Positions 29,438-52,996 of a DNA stretch of 64,000 nt are shown piece after piece. The position numbers were made by a program, and so were the translations under genes. The notes under the pieces are model-generated. The model searched no databases. It was not told the DNA's origin and was given only the letters and a program-made list of their open reading frames with translations. The DNA is taken from positions 2,708-66,707 of the forward strand of contig CANRHK010000001.1 in the NCBI GenBank assembly GCA_947630395.1, in the 5' to 3' direction. This DNA comes from an uncultured Oscillospiraceae bacterium. Lineage in GTDB: Bacteria > Bacillota > Clostridia > Oscillospirales > Oscillospiraceae. Numbering within the stretch: the first letter of the stretch is position 1; every line of letters starts with the position of its first letter.

Positions 29438-29484
29438 TTGATCTTCCTCTCTTGTCTCCCCGACAAATCCATTAAAATTCGGCG

Positions 29485-29512: not shown

Positions 29513-29547
29513 TCCTGCGCCCTTAATGTACTTACCCTCTCAAACCA

Positions 29548-33368: not shown

Positions 33369-33434
33369 TGCAAAACATCCCTTTCCACCGGTATCTTTGT
33401 CATAGGTGTCTTCATTTTTTAACAATTCCGTAAC

Positions 33435-34811: not shown

Positions 34812-35573
34812 CTACGGTACGGAAAGATCCGCGTCCGCATACCGATAGATCGTATATCCGTCCACATGATCGTACCTTTCATAGGAGCAGGCGGCCAGGC
34901 TGCCTGCTATCTTTTTGTCATCGGGCAGGATGATATAATGGCAGCCCCACTGTCTGGCAAGCGCCGTCAAAGCGGCGGCGTCGATCTCCTCCGCCTCCAT
35001 CTCCCCGTACAGCTCATTCCACACATTCCACCGATCCACCGTGATCTCTCTGCCGTAGGGCATACAGATGGTGCCGTCATACTGCCTTACATACTGCAAA
35101 AGCTCCTCCGGAAAGACCGCCATCACCTCTCTGCCTTCCACCCGTATGCTGTCGCAGATATCCACCACGCTCTGGGGCATGTGATACCAGTTTTCCGCCC
35201 GATGAAACAGAGGATTTTGATAGATGAAGCTTCCGGACACCAAAAGGATCACTGCCGCAGCTCCCGCAAAAAATAACTTCGCCCGCCCCTGCAGCTGCCC
35301 GTAGATCTTTGTCACCGCACAGGCGATGGTCACGGATACGGGCAGAAGCCAAAGGATGCGATAATAGATCTCCGTATCCGCCAGACGGAACACGATTCGG
35401 GCAATCAGCGGATTAAAAAAGAGCAAAAGCAGAATGACCGGCACATAGACAAACAGGATCCGGATATTTTTTCTCTTTTCCTCAAGCCACAAATAGACCA
35501 GGGAAAAAAAGTACCAGATCATTATCAGCCCATCCCCCATATAATTCTGAAACAAAGCGATCACATCCCGCAT
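34812..35573 (-). CDS. Membrane protein with soluble C-terminal domain; in frame with the upstream ORF across a single TGA
   Basis: Four to five TM helices followed by a soluble domain of about 130 aa. It has its own strong SD (AAAGGAGAG, 5 nt from ATG 35573). Confidence 0.6.
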   Translation of the reverse strand: MRDVIALFQNYMGDGLIMIWYFFSLVYLWLEEKRKNIRILFVYVPVILLLLFFNPLIARIVFRLADTEIYYRILWLLPVSVTIACAVTKIYGQLQGRAKLFFAGAAAVILLVSGSFIYQNPLFHRAENWYHMPQSVVDICDSIRVEGREVMAVFPEELLQYVRQYDGTICMPYGREITVDRWNVWNELYGEMEAEEIDAAALTALARQWGCHYIILPDDKKIAGSLAACSYERYDHVDGYTIYRYADADLSVP

Positions 35574-35597: not shown

Positions 35598-36665
35598 TCA
35601 GGTCAGCAGCATGTACAGCGCCGTGCAGGCCGCGCACGGAACACAGCAGGCCGCCATCGGCAGCAAAAATTTCCACTGCCGGTAACAAACCGCGCCGCAG
35701 AGCGCGGCAATTCCCACAAGCATACAGCACAGCATGGATCCCATGGTGCTGCAGAGACAGCCGGACGTCATAGCCGACGCAAAGAGCACCCAGAAGCCGA
35801 TCGAAGCCTTGTGGCCGCTCTGCAGCCGTTCCAGCAGGACGAACAAAAGAAGAAACAGCACCGGTATGACGATGCTTCCCAGCGCCGCCTTCCCCTGGCG
35901 GCTCCTGGCGATCAAAAAATTCTCCACCGTATAGTGGGAGCTGTCTCCAAACAGCACCAAAAGCTCCGCGAACACCAGAAACAACGGCAGGCGTTCCCTG
36001 TTTCCGGCGCAGAGCTTCTGCCCCAACAGATAAAACGCCCCGTACGCCATAGCGATCATCGCGAGAGGAACCGCCACCTGGGCCACGCTCACGGAACGGA
36101 TCCCCGACATTCTGACAAGGAACGTGATCCAGACGGGAAACGGGGCCAGGCAATGCCTGAGATCCAGCTCGGAGGTATCTCCGGTGTAGGGCGACTTCCG
36201 GTACATGGTGCCGGCGTCGTCCGTGACGGTGGAGGTGGCCACATAAAAGGCATCGTCCGTGTCCGCGTAGGCCAGCCGCACCGCCTGCACCATCTGCAGG
36301 AGAAACAGCGCCCAGAACAGCGCCCACAAAAGCTTCGCGCCCCTGCCGCCCGCATCGGAGCGGTCCGAGACCACCCTGAGCGCTCCCCGACGCTTTCCGG
36401 CGAGCACCCAAAGGCGCGCCGCGGCCGCCGCCAGGCATACGCCCGTCGCAGCCAGATACACCCGCTGGAGCACCATATAATCCTTTTCCATCAGGATCAG
36501 GGGGACGCAGATCACCTGAAAGAGCGCCCAGAGGAAGATCTGCCCGCTTATCCAGGCAAAGGGAAGCCTGCCCGCCTTTTTATCCACCGCGCAAAACAGA
36601 CTGCCGACACCTGTCGGCACTGCCAGCAGCCAGACCGCCAGCAGAAAGCACTGTACTACTATCAT
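35598..36665 (-). CDS. Polytopic membrane protein, GT-C-like (acidic loop motif ADTDDAFYV)
   Basis: Ten or so TM helices. ATG 36665 overlaps the upstream stop as ATGA, with AAAGGAGAA upstream. The stop is TGA at 35600-35598. Confidence 0.6.
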   Translation of the reverse strand: MIVVQCFLLAVWLLAVPTGVGSLFCAVDKKAGRLPFAWISGQIFLWALFQVICVPLILMEKDYMVLQRVYLAATGVCLAAAAARLWVLAGKRRGALRVVSDRSDAGGRGAKLLWALFWALFLLQMVQAVRLAYADTDDAFYVATSTVTDDAGTMYRKSPYTGDTSELDLRHCLAPFPVWITFLVRMSGIRSVSVAQVAVPLAMIAMAYGAFYLLGQKLCAGNRERLPLFLVFAELLVLFGDSSHYTVENFLIARSRQGKAALGSIVIPVLFLLLFVLLERLQSGHKASIGFWVLFASAMTSGCLCSTMGSMLCCMLVGIAALCGAVCYRQWKFLLPMAACCVPCAACTALYMLLT

Positions 36666-38404
36666 AGGTTTTCTCCTTTTCCTTCTCGGATAAACAGGCC
36701 GACCCAATCGCCGTGGACGCCGGACTCGATCAGCCACTCCTCCAGGACAAGGCCGTATTCCTCCTCAAGCGCCTCGATGACGTCATCTTGGTCCACGCCG
36801 GTCTTAAGGATCACCACCGCCTCGTCCAGCGCCCGTATCGACTCCTTGTCCTCACGATTCAAAAGCTCGTCCCGGGTCAGCAGAAGCGTGCGCTCATATT
36901 CCGCAAACTCTAAAAGATTCTCATAGTACCCCACACCCGCGTAGACACAGATACAGCTCTCCTCCGCATAGGCCTCTGCCACCGCCCTCTGATCCAGATA
37001 GCCGGTGTAGAGATATTCTCCGTCATAAGCCCCAAGCCGCCCTATCTGCCAGACGACCAGGACGCCGCAGACTATAGTGCAGGAAAGCCTTGGCACCCCC
37101 AAAAAGCCAAGCAGCCAAAGCAGGCCAAACACCAGGCCGAACAGCACAAAGGGAAAGACCGGCATCATGTAGCGGTCCACCAGGTAAGGGGACATTTTGG
37201 CCGCCAGCAGGAAATACCCCGCCGCCGGCAGAATCAGCATCAATAGAAGCGCCCTTCCCTGTCTGCGCCGGACGCTCACCGCCAGACAGACGATCAAAAG
37301 CGCTGCGGCCAGGACAAGCCCCGCTCCGGACACCGTCCGGTCCGCCACCACCCCCCAAAAAGCGCCAAGCCTTGCCGCGTATTCCGCGGGCCCTCCCGCC
37401 AGATTCCGCAGCGCCTCCACCCCCCGGCTGCTTTGAAACACATCCGATATGGCAAAGGGGAATCCGACGACGCCGATGCACGCGGCAAACGCCAGGGAGC
37501 GCGCATATCCAAAAAGCTCCCGATATTTTCTGCGGGCCGCAAGAAGCGCGGCCGTCACAAGCGCAAGCACCAGGCAGTAGAACAGGAAAAAGTACTGCGT
37601 CCAGAACCCCAGCACGGTGACTAAGATCAACAGCCGATTGCCGCCCGCAAAGCCGTCCTCCGTCCATTTCCGCACATGCAGCGCAAACAGCGCCACACAG
37701 AAAAAAGTCACCAGCGCGTACATCCGCACCAGGAGGGTCGTCGCCATCGCCCCCGCCGAGAGACCGTAGGCCAGCGCGGCCATCACCCCCAGCAGACGTC
37801 CGGACACCCCAGACGCCGATGTCCCCCGCTCCAAAAACACCGCGCCAAACCGCTCCCCCGTCCTCATCAGCAGAAGCAGGATCCCCAGCACCGCCGCCAG
37901 ATTGATCACACAGCCCACAAAGGGGCTCACGCTTCCCGGAAACAGGGAGGACAGGGTGTGAAGGAGCATAAAGTGGAGCGGAGGATGGTTATCGTCCTTC
38001 ACGTTAAAGTACACGGACAGATAGTTGAAGGCGTCGTCTCTGTCCACCGTGATATACTTCTCAAAGGTCTGCCCCGCGATCCAGACGGGCTCCTCATAGA
38101 CGTCCGCCGTATAGGAAAGGAGCCTGCTGCCCCTCCCGTTCTTCAGCACATCCAGAAGCGTCTCCCTCAGGTTGGCCAGGGTCTCCCCAAGGGTCTCGCC
38201 GTCGATCTCGTTGTGCACAAACTTTGCAAGGCGGCCCTCCGGCTGCGTCGGGACGATCCATGGGTTAAACTCCGCATTGGCGAGCTCAAAGCTCAAAAGC
38301 TCGTCCATATGATACCCTTCCTTTTTGGCAATGCCCGCACACAGCAGCGCCGCGCACAGAAAAAGCACCGGCAGACGGGTCCGGATAAAGATATTCCAAT
38401 TCAT
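36662..38404 (-). CDS. GT-C fold glycosyltransferase, ArnT/PMT (GT39/GT83)-like
   Basis: A first-loop DE motif (GYHMDELLSFELAN), many TM helices and a soluble C-terminal domain of about 110 aa. ATG 38404 has GGAGGA upstream. Confidence 0.6.
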   Translation of the reverse strand: MNWNIFIRTRLPVLFLCAALLCAGIAKKEGYHMDELLSFELANAEFNPWIVPTQPEGRLAKFVHNEIDGETLGETLANLRETLLDVLKNGRGSRLLSYTADVYEEPVWIAGQTFEKYITVDRDDAFNYLSVYFNVKDDNHPPLHFMLLHTLSSLFPGSVSPFVGCVINLAAVLGILLLLMRTGERFGAVFLERGTSASGVSGRLLGVMAALAYGLSAGAMATTLLVRMYALVTFFCVALFALHVRKWTEDGFAGGNRLLILVTVLGFWTQYFFLFYCLVLALVTAALLAARRKYRELFGYARSLAFAACIGVVGFPFAISDVFQSSRGVEALRNLAGGPAEYAARLGAFWGVVADRTVSGAGLVLAAALLIVCLAVSVRRRQGRALLLMLILPAAGYFLLAAKMSPYLVDRYMMPVFPFVLFGLVFGLLWLLGFLGVPRLSCTIVCGVLVVWQIGRLGAYDGEYLYTGYLDQRAVAEAYAEESCICVYAGVGYYENLLEFAEYERTLLLTRDELLNREDKESIRALDEAVVILKTGVDQDDVIEALEEEYGLVLEEWLIESGVHGDWVGLFIREGKGENL

Positions 38405-38470
38405 GTAATCCTCCACAATTCCGCAGAAGCTCCTCTGCGCGGGCGGTCAAAAGCGCCTTTTTCCTCTCTG

Positions 38471-40264
38471 TCAGTCGGGCTCCACGCGGTACACATAGAT
38501 TTGATAGTAGCTCTCCTCTGTGGAAAAGGGCTCCTCCCGCATCAGCACAAGACCCTGTTGTTCGGCGTTCAGGATGTAGGCGGCGGAAAAGAGATATCTT
38601 CCGCCCATCTCCCACAGCGCCTCCGCGTCCAGCCGGTAATCCAGAAAGGCAAAGCCGCCCTTTTCTATGGTGTAATAGCCGGGGCACTCCGAGCTGAACA
38701 GATAACAGCGGTTGCCCCACTTGTCAAAATTATCCGCCAGATAATCGCTGCGCTCCAGCTCCGGCGAAAGGATCCGGCGAAAGGCGTGCTTGTATTTTAA
38801 CGGGTAATTGTTGGAGTAGCCGTCCAGCGTATAGAAGCCGTGGTAGAGCGCCGCGGCCGGATCGATCCCCAGGCTGACCACCCGATAGTCCTCCTTCTCC
38901 TCTCCGGTCCGCTCCCGCAAAAACTCCTCCACCTGGGAGTAGACTCCCACGGCGTAGTAGTCGTTAAAGCTGATGGCCCCGTAATCGGGATTGCGAAGCC
39001 GCTGGACATTCCATTTAAAGTTGCTCTCCAAAAGCACCTTTCCCCCCGTGCCGCACAGCGCCGCCGCCATCACCAGACCCAAAAGCGCCGCCGGCGCCCG
39101 CAGTCTGCCTCCGGATTCCCAAAGCTCCCACACAAGCGCCAGCCCACAGGCCAGGATCAGATACCAAAGACAGGGGGCCAGCCAAAGGAGACGGTCCATC
39201 TGAAAGGCGCCAAACGCCTGAAACCGCTCTCTCAGCCGGATGCACCCCTCCGTGTTCCAGAGGGCTGCCGCCGCGGCCAGAAAAAGATTGCATCCCAGGG
39301 CGACAGCCATCGCCCTAAGATCCCGCTTCAAAGCCTCCTCGCACCGGCCGCTGGAAGCGCCTCTCCCCGCCCGGGTCCCAAGCGCCCAACCGCACACCGC
39401 CGCCAAGAGGACCGGCAACAGAAACAATACATGAAAGTCTCCGCTGTGTTGCCCTCCCTGTAAAAACCCCTGCCAGAGGGCGGGGGCAAACGCCTCCGGA
39501 TACATCGCATACTCGGACTTATGGGAGACGACAGCTCCTGCAGCGCCCAGGCCCAAAAGCTCCGCAAACAGCCGCAGATTTTCAAGCACATAGATCCCCA
39601 GCATCACCAGAAAGCACCACAGCAGGCGGCGCCGGAAAAAAGGCGTCCCTCTGCCCCGTCTGCCCCTCCAAAGCTCCCACAGCATCCACAAAAGAAGCGC
39701 TCCCAGGACGCCGAATCCCACCAGCACCAGCGAGGAATTAAGGGCAAAAAACGCCGCGTAGGCAAGACAAAGCCTCGTATGCCTCCCCTCCTTCGCCTCC
39801 AAAAGCAGATAGAGAAGCAGGGGCAGGCCGTACTGAGCCAGGCCGTATACCGGAAGAAAGGGAAGGTACGCGTACAGGACGCCGACCGCTGCGGCGATCA
39901 ACGGCCTCCCCGTCACTCTGCGGGCCAAAAGCGCCATACCCACATAGCCGCACAGGCTTTCCGACACCTGCAGAAAGGCCAGGGCGCCAAAGGCGTTTCC
40001 CGAAAGGAACAACAGCACCGCCGCCGGCGCGGGGGGCGTCAGCGCCGTCTTGGACACCCCGCCCAGAAATTCCGGCAGCGTGCTCCCCTGAAAAAGATGC
40101 TTCGCCTGGAGCAGATAGGCGATCAGCTCGCCGTCCAGCTGGTCGTGGTAGGTCACAATGGCGTCCTGTCCCAGGATCAGATAGGGGATCCCCATTGCAA
40201 ACACCGCCAGAAAGCCGGCGATCCAGAAGAAGGTATGCAGTTGAAAGCGCCTCCGATCGCCCAT
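38471..40264 (-). CDS. Polytopic membrane protein, paralog of 55974-57758 (possibly the family databases call DUF6044; unverified)
   Basis: It shares the blocks YHDQLDGELIAYLL / TDQLDGEVINYIY and ALTPPAP / AMTPPAP. It also shares the C-terminal GIDPAAALYHGFYTLDGYSNNYPL / GVNPAAALYNGFYCLDGYSNYYSL and WGNRCYL. The start is ATG 40264 or 40273. Confidence 0.6.
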   Translation of the reverse strand: MGDRRRFQLHTFFWIAGFLAVFAMGIPYLILGQDAIVTYHDQLDGELIAYLLQAKHLFQGSTLPEFLGGVSKTALTPPAPAAVLLFLSGNAFGALAFLQVSESLCGYVGMALLARRVTGRPLIAAAVGVLYAYLPFLPVYGLAQYGLPLLLYLLLEAKEGRHTRLCLAYAAFFALNSSLVLVGFGVLGALLLWMLWELWRGRRGRGTPFFRRRLLWCFLVMLGIYVLENLRLFAELLGLGAAGAVVSHKSEYAMYPEAFAPALWQGFLQGGQHSGDFHVLFLLPVLLAAVCGWALGTRAGRGASSGRCEEALKRDLRAMAVALGCNLFLAAAAALWNTEGCIRLRERFQAFGAFQMDRLLWLAPCLWYLILACGLALVWELWESGGRLRAPAALLGLVMAAALCGTGGKVLLESNFKWNVQRLRNPDYGAISFNDYYAVGVYSQVEEFLRERTGEEKEDYRVVSLGIDPAAALYHGFYTLDGYSNNYPLKYKHAFRRILSPELERSDYLADNFDKWGNRCYLFSSECPGYYTIEKGGFAFLDYRLDAEALWEMGGRYLFSAAYILNAEQQGLVLMREEPFSTEESYYQIYVYRVEPD

Positions 40265-40265
40265 G

Positions 40266-41672
40266 TCACTCATTCCTCCACACGGCGGCCCGCACGCCGG
40301 CCGTCGAAGCCCAGGCCGTCCACAGACAGCCGATCACGATGGTCTTTTTATAGTCAAACATCCCGCCGCCGCGCATGGTGTACCAGATCGTCATACCGAC
40401 GCCGGTCAGAAGCAGGATCCCCCAGAAAAAAGCCTTCCTCCCAAACAGCGTCCCTCCGCGCTCCCCCCGCAGGCGGCCAAGGGCCCTGAGCCAGAAGAGC
40501 GCCTGCAGCGCAGCGGCCATAACCAGCGCCAGCCCAAACCACCATCCGCTGTAGTGAAAGTAGCGGCTGGCAAGCGCCGGCGTGCGGTTCATCATCAGAT
40601 CGTAATTGCGGGTGGTGTAGGAGTCGTACCCTCTTCCCCTTAACAGAAGCACCGATATGGGAGGCGAGAACACATACCCCGCCGCATCCCACGCCATCTC
40701 GTGAAGGATCCGATCCCGATAACGGGAGTAAGAAAGCCGCGCCACCTGTCCAAACAGCTCCTCTGCGCGCTCCGCGCCGTAACTCTCCTCCACGGCTCTC
40801 CCCGCCACCCGAAGCATATTGTCCGCGTAGAAAAAGGTCTCCCTCACCTGATCCGGATCCAGGCACTGCCGTACCTCCTGGGGCCAGTCCTCGTAGGTTT
40901 TGTCCGCGGTGGACCAGGAAAACCGGCTAAACAGCGCTGCGTTCAGACTTAAAGTGCCTCTCCCACAGGCGTCCTTTGTCTGGGTCAGATCGTTCATTCC
41001 CAAGATGATCCCCGCAAAGGACACCACGATGATCAGATGGTTCGCAATCTGGGTCGGCTTTTTGGGGGAAAAGCAGACGAGCCCGTACAGAAAGACGAGC
41101 GCCACCGGCACCGCCCCCAGATACAGATACTCCGGCTGCAACAGCGCGCCCACCAGCCAAAAGACCGCGATCCGCGCCAGATCCATACTTCGGATCTCCT
41201 TCCCGCCCTTCAGCGCCGCCCAGGTCCAGGCCAACTCCAAGAGCATCATGGAGCCGGTCAGGGATTCCGGCAAAACCGCCAGATGGCACTGCATCGCCAT
41301 AGGAAACGTAAGCATCGCCAGACTGCCCCACAGATTGGCGGGCCGCCCCGAGGGGTACACCGCCTGCAAAAAGGCGTGGGCCGCGTAGAGGGCGACCGCA
41401 AGCTGCAGGGCATACATCACACAGTGGCAGGAAACTCCAAAAAGCCCCTCTATCCCTCTGGCAAACAGCAGAAGGACCGGATACAGGATCCCCACGTTCG
41501 GGTCGCACAAAAAATCCTTGCTGACCTGCTCATAAAGGTACGTGTCGCCAAATTTCTGAAAACCGGCAAAATTGCAGAGCATCCAGAATAGTCCCAGGAC
41601 TATCTGGATGCTGAAACCAATCATGCACATCCTGCCGGTCACGGCGGCAGCCGCCTTTACAACTCTCCGCAT
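40266..41672 (-). CDS. Polytopic membrane protein of unknown family
   Basis: 468 aa with about ten TM helices. ATG 41672 has AGGGAGAAG upstream. The 5' 110 codons of the track ORF overlap wecE out of frame and are rejected. Confidence 0.55.
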   Translation of the reverse strand: MRRVVKAAAAVTGRMCMIGFSIQIVLGLFWMLCNFAGFQKFGDTYLYEQVSKDFLCDPNVGILYPVLLLFARGIEGLFGVSCHCVMYALQLAVALYAAHAFLQAVYPSGRPANLWGSLAMLTFPMAMQCHLAVLPESLTGSMMLLELAWTWAALKGGKEIRSMDLARIAVFWLVGALLQPEYLYLGAVPVALVFLYGLVCFSPKKPTQIANHLIIVVSFAGIILGMNDLTQTKDACGRGTLSLNAALFSRFSWSTADKTYEDWPQEVRQCLDPDQVRETFFYADNMLRVAGRAVEESYGAERAEELFGQVARLSYSRYRDRILHEMAWDAAGYVFSPPISVLLLRGRGYDSYTTRNYDLMMNRTPALASRYFHYSGWWFGLALVMAAALQALFWLRALGRLRGERGGTLFGRKAFFWGILLLTGVGMTIWYTMRGGGMFDYKKTIVIGCLWTAWASTAGVRAAVWRNE

Positions 41673-41725
41673 CGATCTTCTCCCTATCCGTCCGCAATGT
41701 GAGCCCTTGGGCCCTCGTCCTATCT

Positions 41726-42859
41726 CTAGGCGTAAAACGCCTTCACGGCGTCGCAGATATAGTCCACCTGCTCCAGGGTCAGGCCATAGAACATGGGCAG
41801 TCTCGTCAGGCGCTCGCTCTCCCTGGTGGTGTACCGGTCCTCCCCGTGGAAACGGCCGAACCGGATCCCCGCGGGAGCCGTATGAAGAGGAATGTAGTGA
41901 AATACAGAGTGGATGTCCCTCTGATCCAGAAACCGGATCAGCTCGGAGCGCTCCTCGATATCCTTCGCCTTCAGGTAGAACATATGGGCGTTGTGCACAC
42001 ACCCCTCCGGTATCACAGGAAGGTCGATCCTGCCGCTCTCAGCCAGAGGCGCCAGATTCTCGTAATACCGGTTCCAGCACGCCATACGGGCATCGTTGAT
42101 GGCATCCGCGATCTCCAGCTGGGCATACAGATACGCCGCGTTCATATCGCTGGGCAGGTAGGAGGAGCCGTGATCCACCCAGGTGTATTTGTCGATCTGC
42201 CCGCGGTAAAATTTGGTCCGGTTGGTCCCCTTCTCGCGGATGATCTCCGCCTCCTCAATGTTCTTCTCGTCCCGTATTAAAAGCGCGCCGCCCTCGCCCA
42301 TGCTGTAATTTTTGGTCTCATGAAAGCTAAAGCATCCGAAGTCGCCGATGGTGCCAAGCGCCCTTCCCTTGTAGGAGGAGAGCACTCCCTGCGCGGCGTC
42401 CTCGATCACCATGAGCCCGTGCCGTCCGGCAATGTCCATGATCGTGTCCATCTCGCAGGCGACGCCCGCGTAATGCACGGGCACAATGGCTCTGGTCCGC
42501 TCCGTGACGGCGTCCTCGATCCGCTTCTCGTCCAGATTCATGGTGTCCGGCCGTATGTCCACAAAGACCGGCACGGCGCCCCTGAGCACAAAGGCGTCCG
42601 CCGTGGAGACAAAAGTGTAGGCGGGCATGATGACCTCGTCCCCCTCTCGGATCTGGGCCAGCAGCGCCGCAAGCTCCGTGGCGTGGGTGCACGAGGTGGT
42701 CAAAAGGCACTTCGCGGTTTTCGTGCGCCGCTCGATCCACTCGCTGCATTTTTTTGTATAAGCGCCGTCGCCGCAGATCTTTTGATTTTTCACACACTCC
42801 TGAATATACCCCATCGCGGTCTCCACGTAGGGGGGCACGTTGAAATTGATCCTGCTCAT
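41726..42859 (-). CDS. wecE: dTDP-4-amino-4,6-dideoxygalactose transaminase (WecE/RffA-like, DegT family)
   Basis: From memory, long blocks match E. coli WecE. These include FNVPPY, CGDGAYTKKC, VIMPAYTFVSTADAFVLRGA, VPVHYAGVACEMDTIM, GCFSFHETKNYS, IIREKGTNRT, DKYTWVD and VFHYIPLH. The start is ATG 42859 or 42865. Confidence 0.88.
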   Translation of the reverse strand: MSRINFNVPPYVETAMGYIQECVKNQKICGDGAYTKKCSEWIERRTKTAKCLLTTSCTHATELAALLAQIREGDEVIMPAYTFVSTADAFVLRGAVPVFVDIRPDTMNLDEKRIEDAVTERTRAIVPVHYAGVACEMDTIMDIAGRHGLMVIEDAAQGVLSSYKGRALGTIGDFGCFSFHETKNYSMGEGGALLIRDEKNIEEAEIIREKGTNRTKFYRGQIDKYTWVDHGSSYLPSDMNAAYLYAQLEIADAINDARMACWNRYYENLAPLAESGRIDLPVIPEGCVHNAHMFYLKAKDIEERSELIRFLDQRDIHSVFHYIPLHTAPAGIRFGRFHGEDRYTTRESERLTRLPMFYGLTLEQVDYICDAVKAFYA

Positions 42860-42861
42860 CC

Positions 42862-43815
42862 TCATTTCCTCCAGATTCCCTTCGCCGTCTCCGGCACATT
42901 CTCCGTTGTCCTGCTGATAATATATTTGGGACGTCCCTTGACCTCCTCATAGATCCTGGCGATATAGTGGCCGATGATCCCCAGGCTCACCATCAAAAAG
43001 CCCCCGATGATCAAGAGCAGAAGGATCACCGTGGTAAACCCTTCCACCGCCGTGCCGGTGACGTAGCGCACCAGCGTCTGCACCGCGAGGATCGCGCTGA
43101 AGATCAGGGAGATCATCCCCATCACCGTCACCGCCTGCAGCGGCAGCGTGCTGAAGGAGGTGGCGTTGGTGACCGCGTATCTCATCAGGCTGAAAAACGA
43201 CCACTTGCTCTCTCCAAACTGCCGTTCCTGCACCTCGTACTCCACCCGCTCCGTGCGAAAGCCCGCCCAGAAGGTCAGCGCCCGAAAGAAGGTGTTTCGC
43301 TCGGGAAGCTCCAGCAATACCTTCACCACCTTGCGGTCCAGAAGCTTAAAATCCGAGGTGGAGCTCATGTCCATCCGGATCAGCCTGCTCATGATCTTAT
43401 AGAACAATCCGGCGGAAAGCCTGTAAAAAATGCTCTCCCTGCCGCGGTTTTTCTTGATCCCCTCCACAATTTCCGCGCCCTCCTGCCAGAGCTTCCACAT
43501 CTGAGGAATGGTCTCCGGCGGGTGCTGCAGATCACAGTCCATGACGATCACCGCGTCGCCGGCGGCCAGCTCCAGCCCGGCGAAGATAGCGGCCTCCTTG
43601 CCGAAATTGCGGGAAAACTCCGCGCCCTTGACACGGGGATCCCGGGCCGCCGCCCTCTGGATCTCCTGAAAGGTGCCGTCCACCGAGCCGTCGCTGATAA
43701 ATACCAGCTCGTAGTCGATCCCGTGGCGATTCAAAAGCTCCGACAGCACCCTTGCCGTATTCTCAATATTCTGTTCCTCGTTGTACGCCGGCAAAACCAC
43801 CGATAACAGCGCCAT
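42862..43815 (-). CDS. Polyprenyl-phosphate glycosyltransferase, GtrB/ArnC/DPM1-like GT2
   Basis: The GT-A N-terminus (LSVVLPAYNEEQNIENT...LVFISDGSVDGT...VMDCDLQHPP) is followed by two C-terminal TM helices. Its stop overlaps the wecE start region. Confidence 0.82.
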   Translation of the reverse strand: MALLSVVLPAYNEEQNIENTARVLSELLNRHGIDYELVFISDGSVDGTFQEIQRAAARDPRVKGAEFSRNFGKEAAIFAGLELAAGDAVIVMDCDLQHPPETIPQMWKLWQEGAEIVEGIKKNRGRESIFYRLSAGLFYKIMSRLIRMDMSSTSDFKLLDRKVVKVLLELPERNTFFRALTFWAGFRTERVEYEVQERQFGESKWSFFSLMRYAVTNATSFSTLPLQAVTVMGMISLIFSAILAVQTLVRYVTGTAVEGFTTVILLLLIIGGFLMVSLGIIGHYIARIYEEVKGRPKYIISRTTENVPETAKGIWRK

Positions 43816-43838
43816 CTTAAACTCACTCCTCCGCCGCT

Positions 43839-45413
43839 TTAGTCTCTCCCCGTGTTCTCTGTCTTGACACACAGCACCCCGTCTATGACCTTTACGGAGG
43901 TCTCCCCGGGGAAGCTCTCCATGTCAATGTATTCCTCCGAATAATAGATGCGGCCGGTCTCCTCGGGAGACAGGAAATTCAAGGTCGCTCCCAGATAATT
44001 CTTCATAAACGCCTGATAGTTGGCTCCGGTATACAAAAGCAGATCCTGGTCGCCGCTGATGCCGATCATACCGGAGGTCACATCCTGCGTGATGTCCGTC
44101 AGCGGGTACGGATCGCTCCCCACCACGCCCACGATGGCAATGGGGATCCCCTGATAATACCCTTCGGTCTGCTCGATCCGATCCAGCAGGCGGACACAGT
44201 AGGCGTACGTCTTTTCGTACCGCTTCTCCAGGTTGGAGTAGGCAATATTGTCCGTCACCAGATAGCAGAACACCATCACGGCCCCCGAGAGGACCAGCGC
44301 CCAGGAGCAGAGCGCGCCGCTCCTTCCGCCACCGCCGTACCGGCTCACAAACGCAAGCATCAGAATCGGATACAGGATCCACTGATACCGCATGAGCAGA
44401 TGGTAGGTCACCTCCGGCGAGATCGCCAGGATCACGTTGGTGGCCAGGGGACAGCCAATCACCAATAAGCCTATTATAACGAAAAAAATCGGTTTCTTCC
44501 ACCATTTTCTAAAGAAAGCCATCCGAATCACCGCCGCCGCGGTCAAAAGCACCAAAACCGCCAGCGCGGCTATGGAGAACGGATTGTGAAACAGCACGTT
44601 CCCCTTGAAGGTGAAGGAAAAAAAGTCCCGATACATGTGGGCCAGGGAGGATAGCAGCCCCCGAGAGCCCACGCTCTCCATGCCGTCGATCCCCTGGTAG
44701 GACGCAAGCTCCTTTCCCTGGAGCCACAGAAGGACGCGCAGGATCCCATAGTAGAGCGCCGCGCCGAAAATTCCCATACCGGCGTAGCGCAGGATCCCCC
44801 TCGCCTTCTCTCTCACCGTACCCTCCTCCACCGCCAGAAGCACCGCCGAGTAGAGGCTCAGCAAAATCGCAAAGGGCAGATACGCCTGATAGATCCCCAT
44901 GCTGAACGCCAGGCACACCGCCCCGGCCACAAAGCCAAACCGGGGGCGCCCCGCCAGAAACACGGCGAGCACCGCAAGAAAAAGCGCCATCATGTAGCCG
45001 TCCAGGGTGAACACATAGGCAAAGGTGGAGGCCAGCGCCGGAAAGGTCACCAGCAGCCCGCTCACCAGTCCGATCACCAGCCTGTCCTTCAGTCTCAGAA
45101 TCTCCGTCAGCACCACGCCGGCGCAGGAGAGCCAGAAGATCCCGATCAGGCCGATGACCCAGGGAAGCGTATAAAAAGAAGAAAAACCACACGCCACCAT
45201 GAGAAACCACCTGCCGGAGGTGATCATATTCTGGTCAAAATATATGCTTCCCAGCCCGTCGTGGTTGGGAATATCCGACAGCAGAATGGGCATATGGGTC
45301 AACAGCCCCAAAAGAAAAGCCGACCAAAAGGCCGTCCTCCACTCCGGTCTGATATGCCCTCGCAGCCATGTAATTGTCTCCCAGGGAGTCCTGTACTCTT
45401 TTTGCGCCGACAT
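43839..45413 (-). CDS. Polytopic membrane glycosyltransferase, GtrC/GtrII-like (tentative)
   Basis: The first-loop motif is LLSDIPNHDGLGSIYFDQNMITSGRWF. It has about 12 TM helices and a soluble C-terminal domain. It lies directly upstream of the GtrB-like gene. Confidence 0.5.
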   Translation of the reverse strand: MSAQKEYRTPWETITWLRGHIRPEWRTAFWSAFLLGLLTHMPILLSDIPNHDGLGSIYFDQNMITSGRWFLMVACGFSSFYTLPWVIGLIGIFWLSCAGVVLTEILRLKDRLVIGLVSGLLVTFPALASTFAYVFTLDGYMMALFLAVLAVFLAGRPRFGFVAGAVCLAFSMGIYQAYLPFAILLSLYSAVLLAVEEGTVREKARGILRYAGMGIFGAALYYGILRVLLWLQGKELASYQGIDGMESVGSRGLLSSLAHMYRDFFSFTFKGNVLFHNPFSIAALAVLVLLTAAAVIRMAFFRKWWKKPIFFVIIGLLVIGCPLATNVILAISPEVTYHLLMRYQWILYPILMLAFVSRYGGGGRSGALCSWALVLSGAVMVFCYLVTDNIAYSNLEKRYEKTYAYCVRLLDRIEQTEGYYQGIPIAIVGVVGSDPYPLTDITQDVTSGMIGISGDQDLLLYTGANYQAFMKNYLGATLNFLSPEETGRIYYSEEYIDMESFPGETSVKVIDGVLCVKTENTGRD

Positions 45414-45444: not shown

Positions 45445-46296
45445 TTAAGGGTTGTCCCTCAGATAATCCGCAATTCTGCGGGCCAAAAGCTCCCGCCCCG
45501 CTTCGTTCGGGTGCATACCGTCCCTGGTGTATAGCTCCCAGTCCTCCCACCTCTCGTGGGGATAAAAATCATGGTAGACATCGATGATCTCCACGCCAAG
45601 CTCTCCGGCGGCCTGCAGCTCCGTGTCCACGTAGAGATCCAGGGTGCCCCCTCCGGGGTCATACTCCTCACAGGTGAGCCTGCGGTCCCGATACCAGGTG
45701 TAGGTGGGCGTCACCAGAATGATCCGAAGATCTGGGTATGCCTCCCGAAGCGTCCGCACCGTGCTCCGCACAGCGCCGGCAAAGGTGTATTCGTCATAGG
45801 GGTCTTCCCCGCTGAAAAGGGGAGTCCCCGCGTGATAATCGTTCAGCCCGTAAGCCAGAAAGACGATCTCCACCGCGTCGAAGTCGATCTCGGACAGCCC
45901 CTCTATCGTCTCCGGAAAATATTCCGTGTAATTTTCCCGAACGCGCGTGGAGATCTGCACCCCGAAATCCCCGGCCCGTATCGCCTCGGCCAGAACCGCC
46001 ATATTCATGGATTCCTTGGTATAGCCCAGCCTCCTGTCGGTGTCCGTCCTCCCGAAGCAGGTGCCGCCCAGAGCGCCGTTGTACACCGTCTCCCCCAGAA
46101 GCCTCTCCAGCTGCGAGGTCACGGAGGTCTCATCCCGACACTCCCCGAAAATGCTGTCTCCAAAGACCACGATCCGGACATCCTGACGCCAGGGACGGGG
46201 CAGCCGGACCAAAAAGGTGCCCCAAACCAGCGCGCCGAAGCAGACGAGCGCCAGAAGCCCATATATCGTTTTTTTCACTCGTTCCCTGTTCTCCAT
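45445..46296 (-). CDS. Membrane-anchored SGNH/GDSL hydrolase (canonical motifs)
   Basis: Block I VFGDSIF, block II GALGGT, block III AYGLNDY and block V DGMHPNEAGRELLARR. It has one N-terminal TM helix. The ATG is at 46296. Confidence 0.8.
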   Translation of the reverse strand: MENRERVKKTIYGLLALVCFGALVWGTFLVRLPRPWRQDVRIVVFGDSIFGECRDETSVTSQLERLLGETVYNGALGGTCFGRTDTDRRLGYTKESMNMAVLAEAIRAGDFGVQISTRVRENYTEYFPETIEGLSEIDFDAVEIVFLAYGLNDYHAGTPLFSGEDPYDEYTFAGAVRSTVRTLREAYPDLRIILVTPTYTWYRDRRLTCEEYDPGGGTLDLYVDTELQAAGELGVEIIDVYHDFYPHERWEDWELYTRDGMHPNEAGRELLARRIADYLRDNP

Positions 46297-46357
46297 GCCT
46301 TCTCCATGCCTTGTGCTTCTCAAAACTCGGCTCGCCGCCCGACCCGTCCGCCGGCTC

Positions 46358-48691: not shown

Positions 48692-49237
48692 CTACGCAAA
48701 CGCAATCCTGTCATATTTTTTGGTTCCGCGCACCTCTCTCCAGCGCTCTGCCGTCATCCGCATATAGGTCACGTCGTAATAGACGCCCCCCTTGCACACA
48801 TGGTTCTTTTTTTCCTCCACGATCTCACAGCCGCAAAGCCTGTGAAGCGCAATGACGCCCTGGTTCAAGGTAAACACATCCCCATATACCGCCTGCTTTT
48901 TCAGCCCGTCAAACACATAGTCGTACAGGCTCATTTCCAGCGAGAGCGCCGTCCTCATGCTGCGCAGCCGCTTCTCGCCCACATAATATGCCCAGCCCAG
49001 CTCCCCCGAGGGCTTTGTGAGTCCGGTGAGATTGATGACCCCCGCGGGTTCCCCGTCTACCGAGATCAGCCAGTAGCGCACATCCTCGTTTGCCCGAAGC
49101 GCCGCGAGCCATTTCCGCTGTCCCTCCAGGGTCAGCTTCGGATCGGTGTTCATATACCGCGTGATGTCCGGATCCATTCTCCAGCGCATGATATTTTCCA
49201 GATCCGCCTCCTGTATTTCCCGCAATGTCACTCCCAT
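48692..49237 (-). CDS. pseH: GNAT N-acetyltransferase, PseH-like
   Basis: LREIQEADLENIMRWRMDPDITRYM...QRKWL resembles PseH. It is 181 aa and lies between the ACP gene and pseI. Confidence 0.7.
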   Translation of the reverse strand: MGVTLREIQEADLENIMRWRMDPDITRYMNTDPKLTLEGQRKWLAALRANEDVRYWLISVDGEPAGVINLTGLTKPSGELGWAYYVGEKRLRSMRTALSLEMSLYDYVFDGLKKQAVYGDVFTLNQGVIALHRLCGCEIVEEKKNHVCKGGVYYDVTYMRMTAERWREVRGTKKYDRIAFA

Positions 49238-49515: not shown

Positions 49516-51171
49516 CTACCTTTCTTTTCCTCTTTCTCCCTCTTCCCTCTCTACATAATACACCCTTCGGGGGGCCTTTGCGATCTCTATCTCATAGACC
49601 GCCCCTCCCCCGGGCGCTTCCCCCACTCTATGGTATCCCGCCTGCCCGTAAAGCCCCTGAACGGGCTTGTTCTTGAGCGTGGGCAGATAGCTTCCCCGCA
49701 GCCTTTCAAATCCGGAGGCCAGCAGATCCCGCTCCACATCCTCCAGAATGGCGTACTCGATATTCCTTCCCATCACCCGACAGCTCATGGCAAACTCCTC
49801 CACCTCGGGGATCTCTCCCCCAAGATCCACGATGACCGCCGCGATCACGCCGCTGTCCCCAAAGCGGTCCGCCGCCTGATACAGGTACACGCGACGGCTC
49901 TCATCCTCCAGCGTCTGCAATATCTGGGCCTGTGTGTATCGCCTGGTCGTCAGGTTGAACTGGTTGGTCTTGTTCACCAGCTGGGTCAGGCGCTCCACCT
50001 GAGAGGCGGGCTCCACCCGCCGCAGGGTGATGTGCAGTTGCTCCAGATACGCCTCAAAGCTTCCCGAGGCGCTCTTCAGCCGGGCGCGCTCTGCGTTCGC
50101 GGCATACTGCCTGGTCTTGTCCCCATCCTCATCGGTGAGCGCCGCCTTCTCAAAAAAGCGGCGATAGATCTCCACCATAGCCCCCGCCAGCTCCTCCGGT
50201 CTTTCGGGAAAATCCGGCACCTCCACCTGGGGGAGAAGCTCCTTTACCAGCGCCCGCTCCGCGGGATGATCGTCAAAGAACACAAAGGAGTCCAGCCCCA
50301 GGTTCAGCTCTTTTGCGATTTCGGCAATATTCTCATGCTTCGGCTCCCAGTTGATCCTCTGGGCGGCAAAATGCTCCGGCTTAAGCACCATATGGGGATG
50401 ATGGGCCAGAATCCCCTGTACATCCTCCGCATTATTCTTGGACACGATCCCAAGGAGCACGCCCTGTCTCTGCATCTGCAGGAGCACTCTCTGGAGATTT
50501 TTGTACGCCAGACCGCTTTTCTCCTCGGACAGAGTGATCGGCGTATGGTCCGCCTCCCCCGCCAGGCCGCCCCACAGCGTGTTGTCCAGATCCAGAAGCA
50601 GCACCTTTTTGGGGGTGCGCCCCTCCACCTTTGCCAGATGGCGGATACACCTGCAGAGACTCTCCTGGGCCTCGCTGCTCAACAGGATCTTCCCCAAATA
50701 CCACATTTTCAGCGAAAACGCCCTCTCCTCCCCCAACGCTTCTATCAGGCGGCGATAGGGCAGGATCCGCACGTTCGCATGTTCCCTCACACAGCGCGCA
50801 AGGCGCTCCTGCCAGATCCCCTCCAGGGCCGCCTTCCTTCCGGTATCGTGTACGGCCCCCAGCTCTATCCCCCACAGATACGCGTCCGAAATATAATAAA
50901 TAACATCCGTTTTTATGCAGCCTTCCAGGTCGGAAAACCAGCGCTCCACCGGCTCTGCGGCGCGCTCCGGATCCAGCTCGTGCCCTGTAAGCTCCATCAG
51001 ATCCTCCACGAGGAAGGTGATGTCCGGCGCAAAGGCGTGGTAGGAGGATGACGGATTTAGCAGCGTCCCCAGCTCGTTCCCGTACCCTTCCGCCTCGTAC
51101 ACCGAAAAATCCTCCTTGAGCCTGCGGATCACAAAGTCCATATTCACATTGGAAAGCAGCGCAATCTTCAT
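49516..51171 (-). CDS. FkbH-like HAD-IIIC family protein with C-terminal GNAT-like domain
   Basis: It carries the HAD motif I LLLDLDNTLWGG and the fold order typical of FkbH-like proteins. The C-terminal part is acyltransferase-like (VIAAVIVDLGG...FAMSCRVMGRNIE). The ATG is at 51171. Confidence 0.75.
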   Translation of the reverse strand: MKIALLSNVNMDFVIRRLKEDFSVYEAEGYGNELGTLLNPSSSYHAFAPDITFLVEDLMELTGHELDPERAAEPVERWFSDLEGCIKTDVIYYISDAYLWGIELGAVHDTGRKAALEGIWQERLARCVREHANVRILPYRRLIEALGEERAFSLKMWYLGKILLSSEAQESLCRCIRHLAKVEGRTPKKVLLLDLDNTLWGGLAGEADHTPITLSEEKSGLAYKNLQRVLLQMQRQGVLLGIVSKNNAEDVQGILAHHPHMVLKPEHFAAQRINWEPKHENIAEIAKELNLGLDSFVFFDDHPAERALVKELLPQVEVPDFPERPEELAGAMVEIYRRFFEKAALTDEDGDKTRQYAANAERARLKSASGSFEAYLEQLHITLRRVEPASQVERLTQLVNKTNQFNLTTRRYTQAQILQTLEDESRRVYLYQAADRFGDSGVIAAVIVDLGGEIPEVEEFAMSCRVMGRNIEYAILEDVERDLLASGFERLRGSYLPTLKNKPVQGLYGQAGYHRVGEAPGGGAVYEIEIAKAPRRVYYVEREEGERGKER

Positions 51172-51215
51172 TCTGTCTTCTCCGTTTCCCGCTGTCACTC
51201 AGACTGTTTTTCAGA

Positions 51216-51953
51216 CTATTTTTCTGTCTGTTTTTCAGGCTGTTTTTCAGGCTGTTTCTCAACCTGTCTCTCCGCCATCAGGCGGTATTTTATCTCCGCG
51301 ATCTCCCAGTCCGTCTCACTGTCTATGTCCTGGACCTCCAGCTCGGGCACCACGAGGGGCAGGATGTTTCCCACCATAAGCCTGCGGTTTTCCTGAAAGG
51401 CTTTTGTCCGAAACACATAAAACTGACCGGCGTCGTGATAATGCGGCTCCAGATCCTGGGAACGGCTGTCCAGATACTCGGGATATTCAAACACGAGACG
51501 CCCCTCCCTTACGATCAGCGCCCTCTGGGGCGGGTAGGAGAAGGCTACCACCGGTATCAGCGTATCCGCGTCGCTTTCCGAAAGCCGCTTCAGCGCATCC
51601 GAGAGCTTTCGGGCCGTCACAAAGGGCGCCGTGGGATAAATGCAGCAGCCCAGATCAAAGCGCTCCCCTCGTTTTTCATACTCCGAGAGCACCTCCAGCA
51701 GCACATCGTTGGTAGTGGCGAAATCGCCGGCGGTCTCCCCGCTCCGAAAGAAAGGCACCTCGGCGCCATAGCGCTCCGCCACACCGGCGATCTCCTCATC
51801 GTCCGTGGACACCATCACGGTGTCGAACGCGCCGGAGTCCACCGCCGCCTCTATGGAATAGGCCAGGATCGGCTTGCCGCAAAATTCCTTGATATTCTTG
51901 CGGGGAATACGCTTGCTCCCTCCCCTTGCCGTGATAATCGCGATCTTTTTCAT
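51216..51953 (-). CDS. pseF: Pseudaminic acid cytidylyltransferase (CMP-NeuAc synthetase family)
   Basis: The N-terminus is MKKIAIITARGGSKRIPRKNIKEFCGKPILAYSI. ATG 51953 overlaps the upstream stop as ATGA. The protein ends in an EKQPEKQPEKQTEK tail. Confidence 0.85.
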   Translation of the reverse strand: MKKIAIITARGGSKRIPRKNIKEFCGKPILAYSIEAAVDSGAFDTVMVSTDDEEIAGVAERYGAEVPFFRSGETAGDFATTNDVLLEVLSEYEKRGERFDLGCCIYPTAPFVTARKLSDALKRLSESDADTLIPVVAFSYPPQRALIVREGRLVFEYPEYLDSRSQDLEPHYHDAGQFYVFRTKAFQENRRLMVGNILPLVVPELEVQDIDSETDWEIAEIKYRLMAERQVEKQPEKQPEKQTEK

Positions 51954-52996
51954 CGTATGCCTCCCTTTCCGGACGCCCGCGCCATAAACCTGCGAAGCGC
52001 CCATCTCCCGTGATAGACCAGCCAGAAGAGAAGATCGGACCGCCCCTGAAGAGCGATCATTTCCTGCTCCTCGGCTCCGGTGAGCTCCCGATAATAAGGG
52101 TTGTCCGCAAAATCCGGAAACCGCTCCAGGACCCCTCTTCTAAGCTCCCGCACAAAGGAGAGCCGGGGCCTCTTCACGCCGGATAGATAGGAAAACAGCG
52201 TGATCACATAAAAAAGCTCCGTAAACCGGTACTCTATCTCCCTCTCATACTCCGGCAAAAACCCTCGGGTCCGGCACTCCTCATAGAGAAGCGCCCCCGC
52301 GCGCATACGGTCCCTGCACGTTTCCTCCGTGATGTGATGCACCGTGGAGACGGCGTGCTGATAATAATAGTACAGCGGTTCCTCCACCCTCTCAAAGTGC
52401 GTAAAATACAGCGACCATACCGGCCCGGCGCAGTTGTCCTCATAGAAGATCCCCTCCGGAAAGGAAAGCCGGTTTTCGCGGATCACATCGTGCCTGTAGA
52501 TTTTGACGACCATACTGCCGGGGCGCATCAAAAGCTTTTTGTGCCGCTCTTTGTCCAGCACGCCGGTCTGGTCCGCCGAGTTGTTCCGCACCACCTTTCC
52601 CACCTGAAAGGTGTGCTCCTCCACCAGGCTGTAGTCGCAGCCCACCAGGTCTGCTCCGGTCTCTCCCGCTCTCGCCAAAAGCTTCTCATAGCAGTCCGGC
52701 GCCACCCAGTCGTCGCTGTCCACAAAGCCGATCCACTCCCCCTGGGCGGCCCGCAGGCCCACATTCTTGGCCCCGCCCTGCCGCCTGTTCTCCTCACAGC
52801 AGATCACTCTCACCCGATCCGGATATCTCGCCCCGTAATCCCGCAGGATCTCGGGAGAGCCGTCCGTGGAGGCGTCGTCCACCGCCAGGATCTCATAGTC
52901 CTCTATCGTCTGGTTCAACAGAGAATCCATACAAAAATTCAGTTTTCCGTCCGCCGCCATATTGTACACCGGCACGATCACGCTCAATTTCTTCAT
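51950..52996 (-). CDS. Family 2 glycosyltransferase
   Basis: LSVIVPVYNMAADGKLNFCMDSLLNQTIEDYEILAVDDASTDGS, then VDSDD (DxD). Confidence 0.85.
   Translation of the reverse strand: MKKLSVIVPVYNMAADGKLNFCMDSLLNQTIEDYEILAVDDASTDGSPEILRDYGARYPDRVRVICCEENRRQGGAKNVGLRAAQGEWIGFVDSDDWVAPDCYEKLLARAGETGADLVGCDYSLVEEHTFQVGKVVRNNSADQTGVLDKERHKKLLMRPGSMVVKIYRHDVIRENRLSFPEGIFYEDNCAGPVWSLYFTHFERVEEPLYYYYQHAVSTVHHITEETCRDRMRAGALLYEECRTRGFLPEYEREIEYRFTELFYVITLFSYLSGVKRPRLSFVRELRRGVLERFPDFADNPYYRELTGAEEQEMIALQGRSDLLFWLVYHGRWALRRFMARASGKGGIR

Follow-up and report, generated by a model that had tools for sequence, protein, structure and literature searches.

A WecE-type aminotransferase linked to a GtrB-type polyprenyl-phosphate glycosyltransferase in a wall-glycan locus of an Acetatifactor-like bacterium: a candidate source of a lipid-linked amino sugar

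This study concerns three adjoining genes at positions 41,726 to 45,413 of a 64,000-nucleotide stretch of contig CANRHK010000001.1 (referred to as the window), whose locus type and genome are those of an Acetatifactor-like member of the Lachnospiraceae. The genes encode a WecE-type aminotransferase, a glycosyltransferase of family GT2 predicted to load a sugar onto polyprenyl phosphate (Pren-P), and a GtrII-type membrane transferase of the GT-C class. A preliminary description, made from the sequence alone, had read this arrangement as the logic of the Arn pathway, by which a free-amine deoxyhexose would be placed on a Gram-positive wall polymer. In related species this GT2 is always accompanied by WecE, and the three genes are best explained as the central part of a conserved module for glycosylation outside the cytoplasm, situated within a wall-glycan locus of about 50 kb, in which the WecE product may serve as a lipid-linked donor. 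The earlier observation of the gene arrangement is therefore confirmed, and its interpretation is partly supported.

Linkage of WecE and the GT2 in related loci

Related loci were collected with one genome per species and by three ascertainments, namely through WecE, through the GT2 and through PseC, a second aminotransferase that belongs to the pseudaminic-acid (Pse) genes. The first gave 80 loci (74-84% identical), all from Lachnospiraceae such as Acetatifactor and Waltera; the second, for which a divergent member was used as the query, added 76 new loci (64-100% identical), and the third gave 80 loci. WecE lies less than 200 bp downstream of the GT2 in 46 of the GT2-ascertained loci and within 3.2 kb in another 26, where nothing but an AT3 acyltransferase, in some loci together with a GtrII-like protein (family c12, which aligns to GtrII in hhalign with 70% probability), is found in between; the remaining 4 of the 76 contigs end too early to judge. 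All 72 informative species-level loci thus hold WecE at most 3.2 kb downstream of the GT2 on the same strand, and the GT2 clade without WecE was found in none of them.

The linkage is asymmetric, as the GT2 was always accompanied by WecE but WecE also occurs without this GT2. Seen from WecE, the GT2 clade is present within 5 kb upstream in 57 of 80 loci, 15 hold only another Pren-P GT2, which is ArnC-like (c19), and neither is present in 8, two of which lie on contigs that end early. The neighbour of WecE on one side is the GT2 in 45 loci and the GtrII-like c12 in 26, and on the other side a family of membrane proteins of 472 amino acids, here called TM472 (45/80, directly downstream), the family c24 (13 loci) or a DUF6077 protein (11 loci).

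Two sets of loci are particularly informative with respect to the organisation of the module. Five minimal loci (L033, L034, L046, L050, L067) start directly after housekeeping genes (EF-Tu, HAD phosphatase, TruA) and contain overlapping open reading frames (ORFs) in the order ABC exporter, SGNH, GtrII, GT2, WecE, TM472-like, DUF6077 and a protein of 253 amino acids. In L046 and L050 an inverted SGNH gene and a GH25 gene are followed by RfbB-RmlA, while L033, L034 and L067 hold other genes, or end, before this point. No Pse gene, GNAT, acyltransferase or other GT-A or GT-B enzyme was found in the minimal loci, and since the Pse genes are missing, the Pse block and the acylation cassette described below can be regarded as optional inserts, and GT2-WecE as the invariant pair. 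In the second set, six PseC-ascertained loci lack the ABC exporter, SGNH, GtrII, GT2, WecE and TM472, all as one block, and retain DUF6077, the 253-amino-acid protein, RfbB, RmlA and GH25, and in L120 and L139 also Wzm-Wzt. This co-absence indicates that WecE co-varies with the GT2/GT-C block and not with the main-chain module. Across the loci, wecE was never seen beside RfbB/RmlA or main-chain glycosyltransferases, and no cytoplasmic glycosyltransferase co-occurs with WecE. The same locus is carried by a cultured mouse-gut isolate, Acetatifactor muris DSM 23669 (L011, L166).

WecE, RfbB and the supply of the dTDP-sugar

The aminotransferase passes both NCBIfam models for WecE, with 624.9 bits on NF008687 (cut-off 375) and 617 bits on TIGR02379 (cut-off 434.85), and remains far below the cut-offs of the PseC, ArnB and LegC models (184 bits on PseC with a cut-off of 423.5; 182 bits on ArnB). 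The match to the structurally and biochemically characterised E. coli WecE (4PIW/4ZAH) scores 560 bits, with 67% of the residues identical across 360 aligned columns, and the motif around the lysine that binds pyridoxal phosphate, FSFHETKNY (HETK), is conserved. By sequence, the protein is an orthologue of E. coli WecE, and the earlier assignments of the transaminase and of rfbB both hold (Table 1). Together the two enzymes should make dTDP-4-amino-4,6-dideoxygalactose (dTDP-Fuc4N), in agreement with the dTDP-4-amino-4,6-dideoxyhexose expected in the preliminary description. The identity of 67% between a Firmicute WecE and that of E. coli is well above cross-phylum expectation, which hints at a horizontal transfer between gut Enterobacterales and Lachnospiraceae.

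A GGAGG Shine-Dalgarno sequence stands 8 nt before the second ATG of wecE at 42859, which is likely to be the true start. The junction with the GT2 gene is an ATGA overlap if the first ATG is used and a spacer of 2 nt if translation begins at 42859, so that the overlap with the GT2 stop reported earlier depends on the start codon, whereas the tight coupling of the two genes is present under either.

Every plausible ORF of the window was scanned with family models, and RmlA was additionally sought by tblastn. RmlA, RmlC and RmlD were not found in the window, as had been noted before, and the scans revealed no 4-ketoreductase there either. Since neither RmlC/D nor a 4-ketoreductase is encoded in the window, WecE is the sole visible user of the RfbB product in it. 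In related loci, RfbB copies that are 81-95% identical lie 7-10 kb downstream of WecE, usually with RmlA next (490 bits on TIGR01207), whereas RfbB of the window is followed after 110 bp (29437-29548) by a GH25 gene, and sister loci usually hold RmlA in between.

The GT2 and the membrane-embedded transferases

The ORF of the GT2 spans 42862-43872, with the real start at about 43815. The protein matches PF00535 (E 5e-27), and its residues 4-301 align to residues 28-327 of Synechocystis GtrB (sll0501) with E 2e-69 and 38% identity, while the alignment with ArnC is weaker (E 3e-43). Its DxD motif DCDLQH pairs with DADLQD of GtrB, the aspartate proposed as catalytic in the GtrB papers is kept (TSDFKL), and hydrophobic helices lie at about residues 222 and 252, in accordance with the C-terminal transmembrane (TM) helices described earlier. 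From its sequence, the GT2 appears to have the complete architecture of a Pren-P glycosyltransferase. The best curated family is streptococcal PgfS, with 280 bits under a cut-off of 500. On the ArnC model NF007986 it reaches 166.6 bits with a cut-off of 529 and thus fails the ArnC equivalog test, and the position that is a methionine in ArnC is the GtrB-type aspartate in the GT2 (PMC12690121). The published structures of GtrB and ArnC describe contacts to the nucleotide, the metal and undecaprenyl phosphate (Und-P), and no sugar-contact residues that could be mapped. The proposed donor of the GT2 is the WecE product or an N-acylated form of it.

The GtrII-type gene ends 23 nt before the start of the GT2 and lies directly upstream of it in nearly all loci with this GT2, so that the GtrC-like transferase described before the GT2 gene is well founded (PF14264; Table 1). 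On the other side of wecE, TM472 has no match in Pfam or NCBIfam, its PDB profile searches gave nothing meaningful, and hhalign finds its family unrelated to the GtrII family (10% probability). Only 82 homologues were found, and even one with 35% identity keeps the same gene order. An AlphaFold (AF2) model built from 44 homologues reached a pLDDT of 88.9 and a pTM of 0.90, and its best PDB matches in Foldseek are all GT-C proteins, namely STT3, ArnT 5F15, AglB, EmbB and Pmt, with E-values of 2e-4 to 1e-2 and TM-scores of 0.3-0.39. ArnT matches no better than STT3, AglB or Pmt, and there is no sequence-level ArnT match. The model points to a GT-C fold for TM472, by which wecE would be flanked by genes for a Pren-P sugar synthase and for GT-C transferases. 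The GT-C-like genes described downstream of wecE are borne out in the case of TM472; a DUF6044 protein, a membrane protein of 584 amino acids (sub-threshold TMEM260-like match) and the DUF6077 protein are not verified as GT-C. The DUF6077 protein forms a conserved core with the 253-amino-acid protein, for which no family match was obtained, and is also present in loci that lack WecE.

Among the half-transporters of the PDB that match the ABC exporter over its full length, PglK/WlaB scores best (283 bits, residues 5-576); it is the Campylobacter flippase for a lipid-linked oligosaccharide. A tblastn search with the GtrA-like protein of L059 (PF04138) finds no GtrA flippase in the window; some sister loci of another type do carry one. 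Because GtrA is absent, the ABC exporter is the only candidate flippase, and by its sequence it may flip a lipid-linked sugar or oligosaccharide.

At least nine polytopic membrane proteins are encoded in 35598-41684 and 55974-62675 (two GtrII, two DUF6044, DUF6077, the 472-amino-acid GT-C fold, and proteins of 584, 488 and 490 amino acids), yet there is one polyprenyl-phosphate GT2. So many GT-C-like proteins for a single Pren-P GT2 recall mycobacterial arabinan assembly, in which many GT-Cs share one lipid-linked donor.

Proposed route and alternative explanations

In the proposed route, RmlA encoded outside the window would make dTDP-glucose, which RfbB would convert to dTDP-4-keto-6-deoxyglucose and WecE would aminate to dTDP-Fuc4N. 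The GtrB-type GT2 would then load Fuc4N, or an N-acylated form of it, onto Und-P, the PglK-like exporter would flip the lipid-linked sugar, and the GtrII GT-C, probably together with TM472, would attach it to a polysaccharide linked to the wall or to some other acceptor at the surface. A lipid-linked donor of the Fuc4N type is the best explanation for the module because the linkage is complete and asymmetric, the block is absent as a unit, the minimal operon has no other consumer and wecE never adjoins RfbB/RmlA or genes of the main-chain glycosyltransferases; we consider it to have an even chance of being correct.

Another explanation, which we regard as rather unlikely, is that two independent modules lie side by side. 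The SGNH-GtrII-GT2 genes would add glucose, N-acetylglucosamine (GlcNAc) or N-acetylgalactosamine (GalNAc) from a housekeeping UDP-sugar, and the WecE product would feed a cytoplasmic glycosyltransferase. In this case dTDP-Fuc4N would probably be N-acetylated by an enzyme encoded elsewhere, used by one of six other GT2s or by a distal glycosyltransferase, and built into the wall polysaccharide exported by Wzm/Wzt or an oligosaccharide exported by PglK. The window encodes several cytoplasmic GT2s, and enzymes of this family commonly accept dTDP-sugars, which counts in favour of two modules; for the GtrB-type family, we know of no dTDP-sugar donor. A number of further points weigh against a shared pathway. 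SGNH-GtrII-GT2 behaves as a self-contained module, inserted genes part it from wecE in 26 of the 72 loci, seven WecE-ascertained loci hold a second Pren-P GT2 (L008, L027, L044, L056, L058, L068, L072), and four complete WecE loci are without a Pren-P GT2 within range. All of the 150-odd loci come from one bacterial family, so that the complete linkage may partly reflect the shared ancestry of a single locus. RmlA is absent beside RfbB in the window, unlike in sister loci, and must be encoded elsewhere in the genome if the dTDP branch is not broken. The closest characterised relatives of the GT2 are GtrB, which uses UDP-glucose, and PgfS, which together with PgfM1 transfers GalNAc (PMC11092751); UDP-sugars are the donors described for enzymes of the GtrB type (PMC11127046), and the catalytic aspartate is of the GtrB and not of the ArnC type (PMC12690121). 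What argues against two modules is that the GT2 clade was never found without WecE (72/72), that no cytoplasmic glycosyltransferase tracks WecE and the minimal operons have none, that WecE is lost with the GT2/GT-C block while RfbB-RmlA and Wzm/Wzt persist, and that wecE does not stand beside RfbB/RmlA or main-chain glycosyltransferases in any locus.

Within the lipid-linked Fuc4N model, the 4-amino group is about equally likely to stay free or to be acylated. In every pathway known to us that delivers a cationic sugar by way of Und-P, an N-acylated sugar is loaded and deacylated later. ArnC, for example, takes only the N-formylated UDP-Ara4FN, and ArnD deformylates the product afterwards (PMC12690121), which speaks against a free amine and for a neutral product such as Fuc4NAc or an N-hydroxyacyl-Fuc4N. 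Acylation could precede or follow the loading step and be carried out by the FkbH-ACP-GNAT cassette, by a WecD-like enzyme encoded elsewhere, or outside the cell. The preliminary description had found no WecD-type N-acetyltransferase or formyltransferase beside wecE, which is correct; however, the FkbH protein, the acyl carrier protein (ACP) and the PseH-like GNAT lie 5.8 kb upstream in the same direction, in a Pse block that had been overlooked. A PseH-like GNAT is present within 10 kb in 47 of the 80 WecE loci, a GNAT abuts wecE in many sister loci, with overlapping codons in some of them (L055, L066, L068, L074), and a third of the loci carry an inserted AT3 acyltransferase beside wecE. On the other hand, a GNAT within 10 kb is missing from 33 of the 80 loci and any acyltransferase from the minimal operons, the presence of the cassette is independent of WecE and GT2, and the GNAT of the PseC-ascertained loci (c18) mainly travels with PseB-PseC. 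The cassette of the window is moreover placed between pseF and pseI and holds the sole PseH candidate, so that its simplest role is in pseudaminic acid. Taken as a whole chain, the lipid route with a neutral product, which is a sub-case of the Fuc4N-type donor, appears unlikely. Highly improbable, and rejected here, is the replacement of PseC and PseB by WecE and RfbB, which would feed PseH, PseG, PseI and PseF to give an unusual nonulosonic acid. It would fit with the absence of PseB from the 64-kb window and with four loci (L036, L037, L055, L066) that hold PseB, a PseH-like GNAT and WecE together without PseC. However, tblastn revealed a real PseC at 62816-64000 on the plus strand, the WecE score on the PseC model is less than half of the cut-off, three loci (L040, L061, L064) hold a complete PseB-PseC besides WecE, and the minimal loci have WecE, and RfbB and RmlA where these are reached, without Pse genes.

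Pseudaminic-acid genes and N-acylation

The PseH-like GNAT is the only GNAT and the only PseH candidate of the window. Because the FkbH-ACP-GNAT cassette sits between pseF and pseI and no other PseH candidate is available, its assignment to pseudaminic-acid synthesis is the most economical one. Sister loci have either the whole cassette or none of it, and its composition suggests that the N-acyl group of the pseudaminic acid is not acetate but one carried by the ACP, derived from glycerate or of another kind. The ORF scans found no formyltransferase, LbH acetyltransferase or polysaccharide deacetylase in the window, and no WecD beside wecE.

A second aminotransferase of the window, PseC, had been overlooked in the preliminary description. 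Its gene was found by tblastn, is divergent from the remainder of the locus and was masked by an ORF on the minus strand (62786-63874), which is an antisense artefact. In the close relatives L082 and L099, housekeeping genes follow PseC, so that the locus probably ends there.

The order WecE, c18 GNAT and c19 ArnC-like GT2 seen in sister loci had been considered as an Arn-like precedent, but this is weakened by the fact that c18-c19 mostly follow PseB-PseC(-c36); the pair more likely handles the PseH product. In L113, L114, L117, L126, L131, L133 and L143 (at about 8000-12000), the genes are arranged as PseB-(SDR)-PseC-AglJ-like GT2-PseH-like GNAT-ArnC-like GT2, and in L040 a GtrB-like GT2 starts 13 bp after PseC. 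These arrangements suggest that Und-P-linked 2,4-diacetamido-2,4,6-trideoxyhexose donors exist in this bacterial family.

Setting of the locus

The window has a G+C content of about 57%, and nearly all of its genes lie on the minus strand. The features discussed are compiled in Table 1.

Table 1. Features of the window that bear on the proposed glycosylation module, with the evidence for each assignment.
Feature	Position	Strand	Evidence
RfbB, dTDP-glucose 4,6-dehydratase	29548-30633	-	TIGR01181 487.8 bits (cut-off 365), PF16363
253-amino-acid protein, 3 TM helices and soluble domain	34812-35573	-	synteny; constant DUF6077 partner
DUF6077 membrane protein, 8 TM helices	35598-36737	-	PF19554 E 1.9e-95
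TM472, polytopic membrane protein of 468-472 amino acids, GT-C fold by model	40266-41684	-	AlphaFold model and Foldseek
WecE, predicted dTDP-4-keto-6-deoxy-D-glucose 4-aminotransferase, product dTDP-Fuc4N	41726-42865	-	NCBIfam models and 4PIW match
GtrB/PgfS-like polyprenyl-phosphate glycosyltransferase (predicted), GT-A domain and two C-terminal TM helices	42862-43815	-	PF00535, GtrB alignment
GtrII-type GT-C, at least 8 TM helices, C-terminal extracytoplasmic domain	43839-45413	-	PF14264 E 3.4e-46
SGNH/GDSL hydrolase or acyltransferase, membrane-anchored	45445-46323	-	PF13472, PF00657, one N-terminal TM helix
PseH-like GNAT	48692-49237	-	91.3 bits (cut-off 93.1)
Acyl carrier protein, 72 amino acids	49287-49505	-	PF00550
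FkbH-domain protein	49516-51198	-	TIGR01686 304 bits
PglK-like homodimeric ABC exporter	52993-54741	-	PF00664, PF00005
PseC, running off the right edge	62816-64000	+	68% identity to a PseC scoring 459 bits; PF01041 E 5e-123
Cytoplasmic GT2s	13216-14145, 17027-18052, 17998-19452, 21417-23504, 51950-52996		

Upstream of the GtrII gene and in the same direction lie the genes for SGNH, which by synteny belongs to the conserved SGNH-GtrII-GT2 module, PseG, PseI, the PseH-like GNAT, ACP, FkbH and PseF, and beyond PseF a GT2, the ABC exporter, a GT52-like transferase and four polytopic membrane proteins, among them a second GtrII and a second DUF6044 protein. Downstream of wecE follow, in this order, TM472, DUF6044, the 584-amino-acid protein, DUF6077 and the 253-amino-acid membrane protein, then an SGNH gene in the opposite orientation and RfbB, which has a GH25 muramidase on each side. 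Farther downstream are Wzm/Wzt, with the C-terminal domain of Wzt present, a methyltransferase fusion, a phosphoglucomutase and several GT2s, and then a priming enzyme of the Bac_transf type and an LCP ligase. A promoter and terminator scan of the region of 33-52 kb found no intergenic signal that interrupts the operon from 45413 to 40266; promoter-like matches were at chance level, and the terminator-like matches between these positions were intragenic.

Some further features of the locus should be mentioned. The muramidases that flank rfbB (28163-29437 and 30705-33425) keep this layout in sister loci, and the larger one carries cell-wall repeats of the choline-binding type. At 23539-27111, a methyltransferase fusion of 706 amino acids adjoins a Wzt with a C-terminal carbohydrate-binding domain (PF14524), a combination that marks polysaccharides which depend on an ABC transporter and have their chain length determined by a terminal modification. 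The first 2,000 nucleotides of the window have a G+C content of 45%, far below the remainder, and encode a DUF6033 protein and a fragment of a GHKL-type ATPase; this part may be of different origin.

Significance

The results suggest an undescribed, possibly positively charged cell-wall decoration in a gut Firmicute, and our literature search found no paper on an Und-P-linked 4-amino-4,6-dideoxyhexose, on this locus or on Fuc4N-containing glycans of Lachnospiraceae. The connection of WecE with a GtrB-type synthase would provide a conserved and testable link. If the proposed route is correct, the donor range of GtrB-type synthases extends to dTDP-4-amino-6-deoxyhexoses, and dozens of gut Lachnospiraceae species, including the cultured Acetatifactor muris, share an undescribed system of envelope charge or antigen variation. 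Cationic decorations govern the resistance to host antimicrobial peptides, and it may be conjectured that the decoration has such a cationic, D-alanylation-like role. With a free amine and pseudaminic acid, the surface glycan would be zwitterionic, and zwitterionic surface glycans of other gut bacteria interact with host immunity. The system would then be a Gram-positive counterpart of the aminoarabinosylation of lipid A and of zwitterionic capsules, of which Bacteroides PSA is an example. The full claim appears unlikely: by it, no GtrB-type synthase before this GT2 would have been known to accept a dTDP-sugar, or to place an amino sugar without an acyl group (Fuc4N) on Und-P, one lipid-linked donor would serve several GT-Cs, and together with pseudaminic acid a zwitterionic wall glycan of amine and carboxylate would result in abundant gut Lachnospiraceae. 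Even on a conservative view, the locus offers a cultured entry point to DUF6044, DUF6077, a new family with a predicted GT-C fold, and a PglK-like exporter combined with a Gtr-type module.

Comparison with known systems

The Arn pathway, which supplies lipid A with aminoarabinose, comprises ArnB, ArnA, ArnC, ArnD, ArnE/F and ArnT. The module resembles it in the combination of a DegT-family 4-aminotransferase, a Pren-P GT2 and a GT-C in one operon, and ArnT is among the best structural matches of TM472. The Arn-like logic proposed earlier stands to the extent that WecE is locked to a Pren-P GT2 and GT-Cs, but the obligatory formylation and deformylation steps are missing, as the ORFs scanned in the window include no formyltransferase, ArnD-type deformylase or SMR-type ArnE/F. 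The GT2 is GtrB/PgfS-like, scores far below the ArnC cut-off and has the catalytic aspartate of GtrB, the branch leads to a dTDP-6-deoxyhexose and not to a UDP-pentose, and the organism is a Firmicute without lipid A. Because the tests for an ArnC equivalog, a formyltransferase, a deformylase and an SMR flippase all fail, the module does not belong to the Arn system. As ArnC needs the N-formylated sugar (PMC12690121) and the window has neither formyltransferase nor deacylase, a route with a free amine would differ from Arn.

With the Fuc4NAc branch of the enterobacterial common antigen (RffG/RfbB, WecE, WecD, WecF), the locus shares RfbB and the close WecE homologue. Unlike in that system, the ORF scans found no WecD and no GT56 WecF in the window, and wecE lies amid membrane-embedded extracytoplasmic transferases instead of the cytoplasmic enzymes of lipid III assembly. 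The locus is not such a branch because WecD and WecF are absent.

Other systems transfer amino sugars by way of Und-P, namely FlmF2/NaxD/FlmK of Francisella with galactosamine, LgmA/C/B of Bordetella with glucosamine, and the mycobacterial PpgS/Rv3779 with galactosamine. In these, a Pren-P GT2 and a GT-C deliver a cationic amino sugar to an envelope polymer, starting from a UDP-HexNAc and requiring a deacetylase. The window, in contrast, has no deacetylase gene, and the sugar would be a dTDP-derived 4-amino-4,6-dideoxyhexose.

The Gtr three-component systems include GtrA/GtrB/GtrC of Shigella and Salmonella, CsbB/GtcA/YfhO, GacI/GacL, the streptococcal GtrB-PgtC2 and PgfS-PgfM1. As in these, a GT2 with two TM helices that is close to GtrB/PgfS adjoins a PF14264 GtrII protein within a locus for a wall-linked polysaccharide. 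The window differs from them in that it has a conserved PglK-like ABC exporter instead of a flippase of the GtrA family (PF04138), and in that an aminotransferase of a dTDP pathway is locked to the GT2, whereas the known Gtr systems use UDP-glucose, UDP-GlcNAc or UDP-GalNAc. A further difference is that several additional GT-C-like proteins share one synthase here.

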